Assembly: GCA_963699755.1 (NCBI GenBank)
Contig: CAVOVB010000003.1
Coordinates: forward strand, 480,001 to 544,000
Direction of reading: 5' to 3'
DNA from: an uncultured delta proteobacterium
Lineage (GTDB): Bacteria > Myxococcota_A > Polyangia > Polyangiales > Houyiibacteriaceae
DNA: 64,000 nucleotides
Shown piece after piece: positions 40,029 to 52,006 of this stretch. The notes beneath the pieces are model-generated. The model was not told the origin of the DNA. It saw nothing but the letters and a program-made list of their open reading frames with translations, and ran no database searches. A program made the position numbers and the translations under genes. The stretch's first letter is position 1, and each line of letters starts with the position of its first letter.

Positions 40029-40098
40029 CAGCAAAAGGGGAGCGTCCGAACGGTGCGCGGCCTGGGGGGGCCGCTGCCGGGCGGACGGTTTTGTCTAC

Positions 40099-40509
40099 CG
40101 TACGACGGGGCGCGGAACAAACCCGTCACGCGGCTGCATCGAACGGCTCGGCGTGCAGATGTGGTTGGAAGCACCTGGGGCCTGGACCACGCACGCCGAG
40201 CCTCGGAACTCGCGCCAATCGGGGGTGGTTGCTGTCTTGCCGATTGTCACTCGTTACGTCGACTCCACCCCATGACGGGCTTTTTCCGCCCCCTCCACAC
40301 GAAGACAGGACCCACCACCTTTCCCAACGGCAGGCGGCAGCGCGAGCCCGACGGGCGAAGCCCGGCGCGAATGCGCCGGCAAGGCAGAGCGAAGCAAATG
40401 CCGCCCCAGGGAGGACTACGGGCTGGGGTGGGCGGGCGGTGTAACAAAACCAAACCAGCTCTCACACCTAGCAACCATCCAAGCTCAGATCTCCGCCGCT
40501 GTTACCGCG
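40099..40509. repeat. structured intergenic repeat, copy 1 (homologous to 51628-51919)
   Basis: Colinear similarity to copy 2 including a 56-nt block with 54 identities; several hairpins; boundaries approximate. Confidence 0.85.
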
Positions 40510-40533
40510 TCTGAGAAAGGGGACCGTCCCCTC

Positions 40534-41184
40534 TTAAATCAGCTCGTCCTTGTCGTTCAGCTTCTTTTCCATCCGGTCGATCAAGCCGCTCCAGCCCTCT
40601 TCCTTGATCACCCGGCGAAACTGCCGCTTGTAGTTCATCACGAGGCTCACGTCGTCGGTGAAGATGTCGAAGACTTTCCACTCTGTACCGGCGGGGCTCA
40701 TGCTGTAGTCGATGGTGATAGCGGGTTGGCGCCTCTTCTTCGTGGACTTGGCCGACGACTTCACTTTGACGCCGGTTTCGATTGGTTCGGTGCCGACCCA
40801 GGTCACTTTGTACTCGAGCGTCGACTCCATGTTGCGTTGGTACTGACGCTCGACCAGCTGCCTTAGGAGGCTCACGAAGCGATCGCGCTCTTTCGGGGAG
40901 CGCTTTGCCCATTCTTTGTCGAGGGAGAGTCTTGCGAGCCGGTCGTAGTCGAGGAACTCGCCGAGGAGCACCGTGAGCTCTGCGGCGCGTACAGGAGTGT
41001 CGGGTTTCCGAAGAACCGCGCGTACCTTGTTATGCTTGGTGCGGATGAAACCCTCGGCCTCTGCCGCCTGGGCATCGGAAACCACGAGCTCGGATGCGTT
41101 GCTGGCGGCTTCCTCTGCGGCTGCGGGACCTGCAAGCCACAAAGAAGCAAGAGCCAGGCCTGTGATGATGAATAGTCGAGTCAT
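40534..41184 (-). CDS. MlaC/Ttg2D-like periplasmic lipid-binding protein
   Basis: Signal peptide; 'LDYDRLARLSL', 'WKVFDIFTDDVSLVMNYKRQF...GWSGLIDRM'. Confidence 0.85.
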   Translation of the reverse strand: MTRLFIITGLALASLWLAGPAAAEEAASNASELVVSDAQAAEAEGFIRTKHNKVRAVLRKPDTPVRAAELTVLLGEFLDYDRLARLSLDKEWAKRSPKERDRFVSLLRQLVERQYQRNMESTLEYKVTWVGTEPIETGVKVKSSAKSTKKRRQPAITIDYSMSPAGTEWKVFDIFTDDVSLVMNYKRQFRRVIKEEGWSGLIDRMEKKLNDKDELI

Positions 41185-50417: not shown

Positions 50418-51564
50418 CTACTCGTCTCGGGGGTCGCCCGCCTTCTTCTTTTTCTTTGCGGCGTTCATCAGGAGATAGGTTTCGATGAACTCGTCGAGGT
50501 CGCCATCGAGGACGGCTTCGGCGTTATTGACCTTGTGATCGGTGCGCTCGTCTTTGACCATCGTGTAGGGCTGCAAGGTGTAGGTGCGCACCTGTGAGCC
50601 AAACGCGATGTCGGAGCGGTCGCTGAGAAACGCCTCTTCGAAAGCCTCTTCACGCTCCCGCCGGGCCTTCTCGAAGAGCAAGCCGCGGAGCATCTTCAAG
50701 GCGGTTTCGCGGTTCTGATGTTGGGAGCGCTCCGCTTCGCAGCGGACGGTGAAGCCCGAGGGGACGTGCTTCATTCGCACCGCGGACTCGGTTCGATTGA
50801 CGTGCTGGCCGCCGGCGCCGCCCGAGCGCATCGTGCTGACCTCGAGGTCTTCGTCGCGGATTTCGATCTCGCCCTCGCTGAGCTCGTCGCCGAGGTCGGG
50901 CACGACACTCACGCTGGCAAACGAGGTGTGCCGGCGCTTGTTGGCGTCGAAGGGGCTGATGCGGATCAGCCGGTGGACCCCGTTCTCGGCGCGGAGGTAG
51001 CCGTAGGCGTTGGGCCCGCGCGCGACGAAGCTTGCGTCTTTGATCCCGGCTTCGTCGCCGGCCTGCTTGCTCAGAAGCTCCGTTTTGAACCCGCGGCGCT
51101 CGCACCAGCGCAGGTACATCCGCAAAAGAATGTCGGCCCAGTCCTGCGCCTCGGTCCCGCCGGCACCGGGATTGATGGTGACGATCGCGTCGGTGTCGTC
51201 GTCCTTGGTGAGCATCCGCTTGAGCTCGAGGCTCCGGACTTCGGCCTCGATCGAAGGGAGCTGACTGGCGACATCGGCCACCACGCCTTCGTCGCCCTCG
51301 CTCGCCGCGAGGTCCAAAAGCTCGAGCAGGTCATTCGCTTCGCTATCTACCTTTTCGAATTCATTGAGGGTTTCCTCGGCAGATGCGCGCTCCCGCATCA
51401 GTTTCTGAGCCCGCTTCTGATCGCCCCAGAAACCCTCCGCGCCGCTCAAATTGCTCAGGCGGTCGATTTCGTGGCGAAGACCATCGAGGTCAAAGATACC
51501 TCCCCAGCGCCTGCATGCGCTGTACGAGGTCGTGGAGCTTTTCGCGGCATTCCCCTGGAGTCAT
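50418..51564 (-). CDS. prfB: peptide chain release factor 2 with programmed +1 frameshift; join(51564..51493, 51491..50418)
   Basis: SPF and GGQ motifs; 24-codon leader ending GGG AGG TAT CTT TGA C. Confidence 0.97.
51489..51505 (-). promoter_or_regulatory. prfB +1 ribosomal frameshift signal
   Basis: Internal SD GGGAGG, 3-nt spacer, then CTT TGA C. Confidence 0.95.
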
Positions 51565-51627
51565 CGGTCTGCGCGCGGACGTACCGCGGTGGCATGGTGC
51601 TGTCAAAGGGGTCGCGGATATACAGGG

Positions 51628-51919
51628 CGTACCGGGGCGCGGAAAAAAACGCGTCACGGGGTTGCGTCGAACGGGGCGCCTTGCAGAGGTGGCCGGAGGG
51701 GCTGGGGGCCTGAGGCCACGCAAGGCGCCCCTCCATAAGGTGACAGGCCGAACCAGGCTCCCCAACAGCAGGCGGCAGCGCGAGCCCGCAGGGCGAAGCC
51801 CGGCGCGAATGCGCCGGCAAGGCGCAGCGAAGCGACCGCCGCGCCAGGTGGGGGTGGACGGGCGGTGTAACTAAACCTCACCACGCACCCAACTCAAGAT
51901 CCGCCCCCCCAAAACCGCG
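51628..51919. repeat. structured intergenic repeat, copy 2
   Basis: Homologous to 40099-40509 but lacks ~85 nt of its interior; boundaries approximate. Confidence 0.85.
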
Positions 51920-52006
51920 GCGGCCCACGTCGCTCGCGCGTCGCGCTCTTCACACCCGCACGATTTGCCTTGTCTTTGCGGGGGCTTTCCGGTTCACTTG
52001 CCGGCC

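Follow-up and report, generated by a model that had tools for sequence, protein, structure and literature searches.

Two related intergenic sequences in the window, a 64,000-nucleotide stretch of an uncultured delta proteobacterial genome, belong to a dispersed family of modular repeats whose core keeps a three-way junction on one strand. An earlier note on this DNA had proposed an undescribed element whose structure is under selection, and we hold this proposal strongly, given the covariation within the family and the absence of an Rfam match. We lean, by a little, toward viewing the family as a non-autonomous structured repeat of the Polyangiales that is spread and rewritten as DNA, with its folded strand selected through a putative reader. 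Under this model, non-coding mosaic repeats would spread as DNA by copying between sites, landing in spacers behind stop codons and terminators. Gene conversion between copies would replace and shuffle their modules, and recombination between copies may delete neighboring genes. The fold would be kept because a putative trans-acting protein reads the folded single strand. Some observations stand against the model: RNA shows G-U wobble, tandem G-A pairs and invariant junctions just as typically, and no mobilizing gene (at the loci tested), target-site duplication or fixed end was found.

Copy 1 lies between the convergent genes crp (plus strand) and mlaC (minus strand), and copy 2 between the divergent genes prfB (minus strand) and a TAtT gene (plus strand); Pfam matches agree with the earlier description here. 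The parts of both copies, in window coordinates, are these:

40037–40092, plus strand: intrinsic-terminator-like hairpin after crp, with an A-run before it and a T-run after it; context, likely bidirectional.
40107–40142, minus strand: 3′ arm of the outer helix P1 of the core (the T end), which usually faces an opposite-strand stop codon.
40145–40202, minus strand: helix P2, the stem first noticed, with 12 bp, a 4-nt bulge, 6 bp and a loop; target of an IS1111-type element at locus L029.
40204–40258, minus strand: helix P3, which contains tandem G-A pairs, an almost invariant U-G pair and a loop rich in A and C.
40259–40293, minus strand: 5′ arm of P1, with a 3×3 purine-rich internal loop.
40329–40410, plus strand: module C, three short GNA-triloop hairpins with G-A-rich internal loops.
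40411–40436, plus strand: IS1111 target segment, then a four-tract G-quadruplex motif (40420–40436).
40437–40509, plus strand: module D, a variable C/A-rich tail partly complementary to the G tract.
40516–40535, no strand assigned: separate short GGGGAC...GTCCCC palindrome outside the core, resembling those that border a Y1 transposase gene (L034).
51629–51670, minus strand: T arm of copy 2, starting 22 nt from TTGACA.
51673–51734, minus strand: helix P2 of copy 2 and deletion junction (P3 and the other P1 arm lost).
51771–51924, plus strand: module C and D tail of copy 2; a 12-nt deletion removes the IS1111 target, and the G motif is broken.

The hairpin after crp is conserved in filled and empty relatives. 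Copy 1 begins directly past it, and copy 2 lies directly upstream of a TTGACA hexamer (51601–51606, minus strand) that is conserved upstream of prfB. Within 51449–51564 (minus strand), prfB shows the usual programmed frameshift: its short first frame starts near 51564 and ends in CTT TGA C at about 51489–51498.

On the minus strand of the window, the core (40107–40293, about 190 bases) forms a three-way junction. Both 12-bp stems reported earlier can be read in the sequence (40145–40156/40191–40202 in copy 1 and 51673–51684/51720–51731 in copy 2), and all four differences between them are compensated. That stem is real, although it is one arm of the larger junction and belongs to the opposite strand. 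Both copies also have the bulge of 4 nt and the inner helix of 6 bp. The AGAK motif ascribed to the bulge does not hold for the family, where AGAT or AGAG occurs in 26 of 112 copies, AAAG is commonest (38), and length alone is fixed. These 112 copies, taken from 118 distinct full-length ones after exclusion of six truncated, interrupted or duplicate rows, were aligned with MAFFT without fitting to a model. From them RNAalifold predicts the three-way junction, with two-sided change in 30 of 51 pairs. A 50-pair model has two-sided change in 29 pairs and 96.8% of its cells paired. Covariation as high arose in 0 of 500 shuffles, and slid controls were 30–42% paired. The copies include kin that are not independent, and because they were chosen largely through a P3 sequence pattern, the conservation of P3 is inflated; 8 of 122 matches to that pattern came without a core.

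The choice of strand is clear. For copy 1, the minus-strand fold of 40100–40298 has z = −4.96 (0 of 200 shuffles), against −2.65 for the plus strand on which the stem was first read, and the model scores 192 bits on the minus strand against 15 on the plus. Across the 112 copies, G-U cells outnumber A-C cells by 369 to 11 on the minus strand, which is therefore the folded one. Some variants seem to break the pairing when read on the plus strand; on the minus strand they prove to be tandem G-A pairs, present in 45–47 of 112 copies in P2 and in 109 of 112 in P3. The U-G pair of P3 is kept in 110 of 112 copies, the junction bases vary little or not at all, and the P2 loop measures 19 nt in 101 of 112. 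Copy 1 departs from its relatives in two places: the T-G pair of its inner helix becomes A-C, a mismatch, when read on the folded strand, unique among the 112 copies, and only 1 of 112 has G-C at stem position 9. In distant copies the topology persists along with a few junction and bulge-flanking bases, while the sequence of the outer stem is free. In alignments fitted to the model, the fold is supported by 42 of the 50 pairs for 22 distant copies and by 40 of the 50 for 38 matches that belong to five other genera, one row of the latter being a reverse-strand duplicate.

Matching arms need not in principle reflect selection. Template-switch repair could copy one palindrome arm onto the other, and strand-biased C-to-T change could supply the excess of G-T pairs. 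Outer stems that are near-perfect and copy-specific in distant families fit such a process, as does the double change in copy 1 (1 of 112 copies). However, arm copying would erase mismatches, whereas the tandem G-A pairs, the U-G pair, the 4-nt bulge and the helix spacing all persist, and several families share the topology. Since the mismatches are retained, this explanation is largely refuted, and we consider it highly improbable.

Contrary to the earlier description, the two copies are not colinear: copy 2 is a deletion derivative that has lost 91 nt comprising P3 and one P1 arm. In related copies a short direct repeat stands at both ends of the lost segment. Because the junction of copy 2 falls within this repeat, the deletion probably arose through microhomology.

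Module C has a different character. Its first hairpin carries a GNA triloop, read on the plus strand, in 82 of 87 scored copies (93 aligned). GNA triloops and sheared G-A pairs are favored in DNA. Folding energies do not separate the strands of module C, whose strand assignment comes from the loop sequence only. The core and module C thus appear from their sequences to fold on opposite strands, so that one transcript could not hold both. A four-tract G-quadruplex motif ends module C in 76 of 96 copies; in the source genome, 14 of 24 such motifs lie within module-C matches, and a fifteenth is a half split off by an insertion sequence. Like the Neisseria pilE G4 (PMC13463697, PMC3547852), the motif has four tracts and short loops and sits at a locus with apparent gene conversion. 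Here, by contrast, the motif is predicted from sequence, and module-C breakpoints do not cluster at it. We rejected the G-quadruplex as a point of breakage on the same grounds, as only 8 of 116 module-C matches are partial and two of those are insertions of transposable elements. Two more hairpin modules, E and F, occur in the same spacers (source-genome loci G000:C3:295812-295950 and G000:C6:69070-69215; L203, L207, L217 and L222), and in some copies module E takes the place of the inner part of the core.

The family is far larger than the pair of copies first described. BLAST with both copies finds 35 loci in the source genome, where the covariance model finds 15 core matches and the second module has 21 hits. 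Scans with R1, the covariance model of the core, give matches in 50 of 55 genomes of the genus, from 0 to at least 47 in each; the five without a core match are G008 (100% complete), G013, G021, G049 and G068. In the order Polyangiales, 32 of 151 genomes match, tallied as six families besides that of the source (f2, f3, f14, f18, f19 and a second genus of f1). A phylum sample of low sensitivity, in which just 16 candidates per genome were scored, has matches solely in the source family (7 of 151 genomes). In Rfam 15 no family matches the element at its gathering score and nothing rises above noise at E 10; the two hits in the window are tRNAs elsewhere. Copies in a Gemmatimonadales record (L134) and a Bacteroidales record (L136) likely lie on misbinned contigs, because their flanking proteins are 78–89% identical to syntenic genes of the source genome. 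In the source assembly, contigs C5–C11 (1.5 Mb) have zero core or module-C matches, and C7 repeats genes of C1–C3; the assembly is recorded with 9% contamination, and part of this set may belong to a different organism.

The placement of the core relative to genes is polar. Gene ends were taken from a simple codon-usage caller that had been checked on the window. By these calls, 59 of 66 copies have the T end behind the stop codon of an opposite-strand gene, 25 of them within 11 nt. Flanking pairs are convergent for 31 of 50 copies, compared with 37 of 311 background gaps. Where the neighbors are co-directional, the folded strand is antisense in 13 cases and sense in 4, which argues against a plain stabilizer of mRNA 3′ untranslated regions. 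Outward-facing inverted doublets of cores, at variable spacing, are frequent in three genomes (G084, G093 and G111), whereas the source genus has mostly single cores. The G084 doublets (L335, L339, L343, L351 and L354) enclose GGGGAC...GTCCCC palindromes, and their outer ends stutter in tandem. As to replichore bias, orientations are mixed within the contigs of relatives, and the GC skew of the source genome is flat.

Such polarity could reflect a function in RNA. The core might be a polar 3′-end terminator or exonuclease block that halts transcripts coming in from downstream, before they can read antisense into the gene next to whose stop codon it lies; doublets would then shield both genes of a convergent pair, ordinary recombination would spread the element, and the host would select the fold. 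The stop-codon placement, the enrichment between convergent genes, the outward-facing doublets and the RNA-like G-U and G-A pairs all suit this idea. So does the genome G071, all seven of whose cores lie inside one 1.09-kb IS5-family element (L332, L336, L338, L340, L342, L344 and L346), on the sense strand of the transposase gene between its stop codon and the right end; the ends of that element differ from those of the core. Family members are also present in RNA-library contigs, though these are unstranded, multi-copy pile-ups from metatranscriptomes (24 runs with small shares, five of which we examined). On the other side, there is no U-tract past the outer stem, the co-directional counts tell against a plain mRNA stabilizer, and copy 2 and its intact orthologues (L218) sit between divergent promoters. 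Moreover, the crp–mlaC spacer has its own terminator whether the element is present or absent, and no core was found in five of 55 genomes. We regard an RNA barrier as the main rival, possible and somewhat unlikely. It is compatible with spread at the DNA level, and neither excludes the other.

Strong covariation would likewise be expected of a riboswitch, a leader or an independent small RNA that has a fixed role, and multi-copy structured RNAs tied to REP arrays are on record (TwoAYGGAY). Yet the 117 flanking proteins share no function, no sigma-70-like promoter was found around copy 1, and presence is patchy across genomes. The earlier note had set aside a riboswitch or leader, and we agree because the flanking genes are functionally random. 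It had left two readings, a structured ncRNA family and a non-autonomous mobile element. A non-autonomous dispersed DNA element fits better than a stand-alone ncRNA gene, because copy number is variable and orthologous sites are empty or differently filled, and a fixed RNA role strikes us as barely credible.

Orthologous spacers differ in whether, and with what, they are filled. We examined the best 30 of 51 genomes for the crp–mlaC site and the best 30 of 48 for the prfB–tatT site. The core or module C is present in 14 of 30 spacers at the former (4 of the rest being only partly readable) and in 7 of 30 at the latter (5 of the rest only partly readable). Filled sites have differing module sets, tandem duplications and inversions, and L193, L219 and L223 carry module C at the same site in the opposite orientation. 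The other spacers are short or carry other repeats. A contig from an RNA library joins 40092 to 40541 and so represents the empty site in a relative. Neither a target-site duplication nor fixed ends were seen, and junctions vary at orthologous sites.

Filled sites also appear to be rewritten. Eight of nine crp–mlaC copies are closer to a copy from another locus (87–99% identity) than to copies at the same site (67–92%), and the ninth ties. Core identity between same-site copies is 72–86%, which is not below the 77–86% measured for mlaC next to it, and therefore divergence alone is no proof of replacement. Within the core, the two arms of one helix are linked, with normalized mutual information of 0.83–0.92 in five of six helices and 0.60 in the sixth; for different helices, all four combinations occur among the copies. 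Together, the empty and mosaic orthologous spacers and the reassortment of helices point to spread and conversion at the level of DNA. Gene conversion is, we infer, the route of same-site replacement. Recombination between modules may also remove genes. Two relatives (L189 and L192) have extra genes between repeat modules at the crp–mlaC site, and the right end of copy 1, part of module D, matches DNA beyond the extra gene in L192, which suggests loss of neighboring genes by this means. At the same site (L189, L190, L192, L196 and L213), some relatives carry a cysteine-rich lipoprotein gene and a 153-aa gene without a family assignment, and others have lost them or retain decayed forms.

The ends of the element have some features of a transposable unit. 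The P1 arms are terminal inverted repeats of the kind that MITEs have, and T ends lie at both edges of composites such as L008 and L270. Tandem direct copies (G062, L333 and L119) and junction bases that are invariant across families could also indicate a self-cleaving ribozyme or an element copied through RNA in the manner of msDNA, RIMEs or SINEs. Partial matches retain the T end somewhat more often, in 19 cases against 11, though many of these partials are simply divergent copies. Against this, no Rfam ribozyme matches even at E 10, reverse transcriptases were found in 8 of 55 genomes, with no match in G005, G010, G011, G020 or G023, and zero cores lie beside the reverse transcriptase loci tested. 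An origin of this sort is very unlikely.

No partner gene emerged at the loci tested, whether transposase, HUH nuclease or reverse transcriptase. Y1 transposase genes occur in 42 of 55 genomes. A core was found beside none of 52 Y1-transposase, reverse transcriptase or integrase loci and none of 15 further Y1 loci. Among the Y1 loci tested, the repeat flanked a RAYT gene in 0 of 31 by BLAST (E < 1e-4), and model R2 matched at 0 of 46. A RAYT or TIRYT partner was rejected, as the Y1 genes have their own inverted ends and those tested have no core beside them. The counts given above led us to reject a retron or other reverse transcriptase partner as well. An integron origin was set aside on two findings: TIGR02249 falls below its cut-off in the source genome, and the alignment holds no RYYYAAC...GTTRRRY cores. 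One genome (G061) has 30 copies with no Y1, reverse transcriptase or four-helix-bundle match, and no autonomous element with the same ends is found among the 117 flanking proteins. For the four-helix-bundle protein (IVP, PF05635), 11 of 31 loci have a module no more than about 400 bp away. Its numbers correlate weakly with core copy number (rho 0.26, p 0.055, 55 genomes), and four core-rich genomes (G019, G048, G061 and G062; 23–39 cores) have zero matches; because of these two facts, shared hotspots fit better than a partnership, which we rejected. The PF05635 genes themselves (L266–L296) number as many as 20 in one genome. Most form convergent pairs, their hairpin leaders lying within tracts of six-base repeats, and they are often joined to or truncated by repeat modules. 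A 688-aa reverse transcriptase-domain protein on contig C1 of the source genome (L026, 520–2586, minus strand), with a long C-terminal region and downstream of a methyltransferase-like frame, is possibly a defense reverse transcriptase.

It is useful to set this family beside known repeats, a comparison that also draws on bioRxiv 10.64898/2026.09.22.753630. As described in PMC3733652 and PMC3116915, REP, BIME and REPIN sequences are extragenic, multi-copy, mostly downstream of genes and enriched between convergent genes; they have G-T pairs in their stems, form mosaics, tandem arrays and inverted doublets, and are targeted by IS110/IS1111 elements, and the present family resembles them in these respects, though inverted doublets are common only in G084, G093 and G111. 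REP units, however, are hairpins of 20–40 bp with a GTAG or CGTC tag in those same accounts, whereas the unit here is branched and 190 nt long. No such constant tag is present, as the flank past the outer stem varies (alignment columns 200–204). No tested RAYT locus is flanked by the repeat, in contrast to REP–RAYT systems, and the pairing is kept while the sequence is free. BOX elements are modular, as is the repeat described here. ERIC, YPAL, BOX, RUP and NEMIS elements are also structured, intergenic, 100–200 nt long and lineage-restricted, and some act as RNA hairpins (PMC2267715). What sets our family apart is a three-way junction confined strictly to one strand, whose non-canonical pairs are conserved from family to family; no TA target duplication was seen. 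Integron attC sites come after stop codons, use the strand opposite that of the gene for their fold and conserve structure and bulges over sequence, and the same holds here. Both are targeted by IS1111-family elements (PMC11187229). Unlike attC, the repeat has no GTTRRRY core, a branched topology and core-gene neighbors, and the integron integrase falls below cut-off. The family thus works like REP/BIME/REPIN and ERIC/BOX repeats, with a polarity like that of attC, and falls outside REP–RAYT, MITE, attC, RIME and Rfam membership. In the literature, Minerva preprint supplements aside, we found no description of it.

The family may matter for several reasons. Some 150 aligned copies provide helix-by-helix covariation, non-canonical pairs and a clear strand, and the fold is therefore unusually well defined. 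Because natural variation fixes both fold and strand so well, the long-standing question for REP- and ERIC-like repeats, whether they are selected as DNA, as RNA or as neither, becomes directly testable. The family also appears to remodel genomes through gene loss and inversion at filled sites. A more ambitious and rather doubtful proposition is that the junction represents a novel kind of polar signal in nucleic acid, conserved among Polyangiales families and read by a host or other protein, either an RNA barrier to convergent and antisense read-through where genes end or a single-stranded DNA recombination site free of RAYT, integrase and reverse transcriptase. If so, the junction and its opposite-strand GNA-triloop and G-quadruplex module would constitute a self-rewriting repeat system that deletes and shuffles neighboring genes, and IS1111 transposons would have been reprogrammed twice to exploit it.

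Insertions of this last type are found in the repeat itself. The IS110-family protein of L001 has seven matches, four of them inside the repeat: three at one site in module C (L001, L028 and L031) and one in P2 (L029). According to PMC11187229, IS1111 elements are defined by subterminal repeats 7 bp and 3 bp from their ends and a downstream non-coding region. All of these features are present in L001, L029 and L031; L001 encodes a DEDD transposase and belongs to the IS1111 group, with a subterminal repeat of 10 bp where that source gives 11–13, and L028 retains only the left end and the transposase gene. The L001 element (441–1826; G000:C3:606740-608125) is intact and single-copy, with relatives at the same target in G004 and G005 and a retargeted one in G051 (L029). 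Candidate guide segments match their own sites at 8/9 and 6/7 positions in L001, 9/9 and 6–7/7 in L031, and 7/7 and 7/7 in L029. They match both target strands, the top-strand complement coming first, which is the order published in the same source (PMC11187229). ISPa11 and ISKpn4, IS1111 elements guided to REP or attC, are similar in having subterminal repeats and two target-matching segments (PMC11187229), whereas here two related elements (52% protein identity) are aimed at two modules of one family. Judged from these candidate guides, two IS1111-type elements have been retargeted to different modules of a single repeat family, and this natural pair of putative guides could be useful for work on RNA-guided recombinases. 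A further element, L030, is inserted elsewhere; it has other guide letters, and only one of its segments matches its own site.
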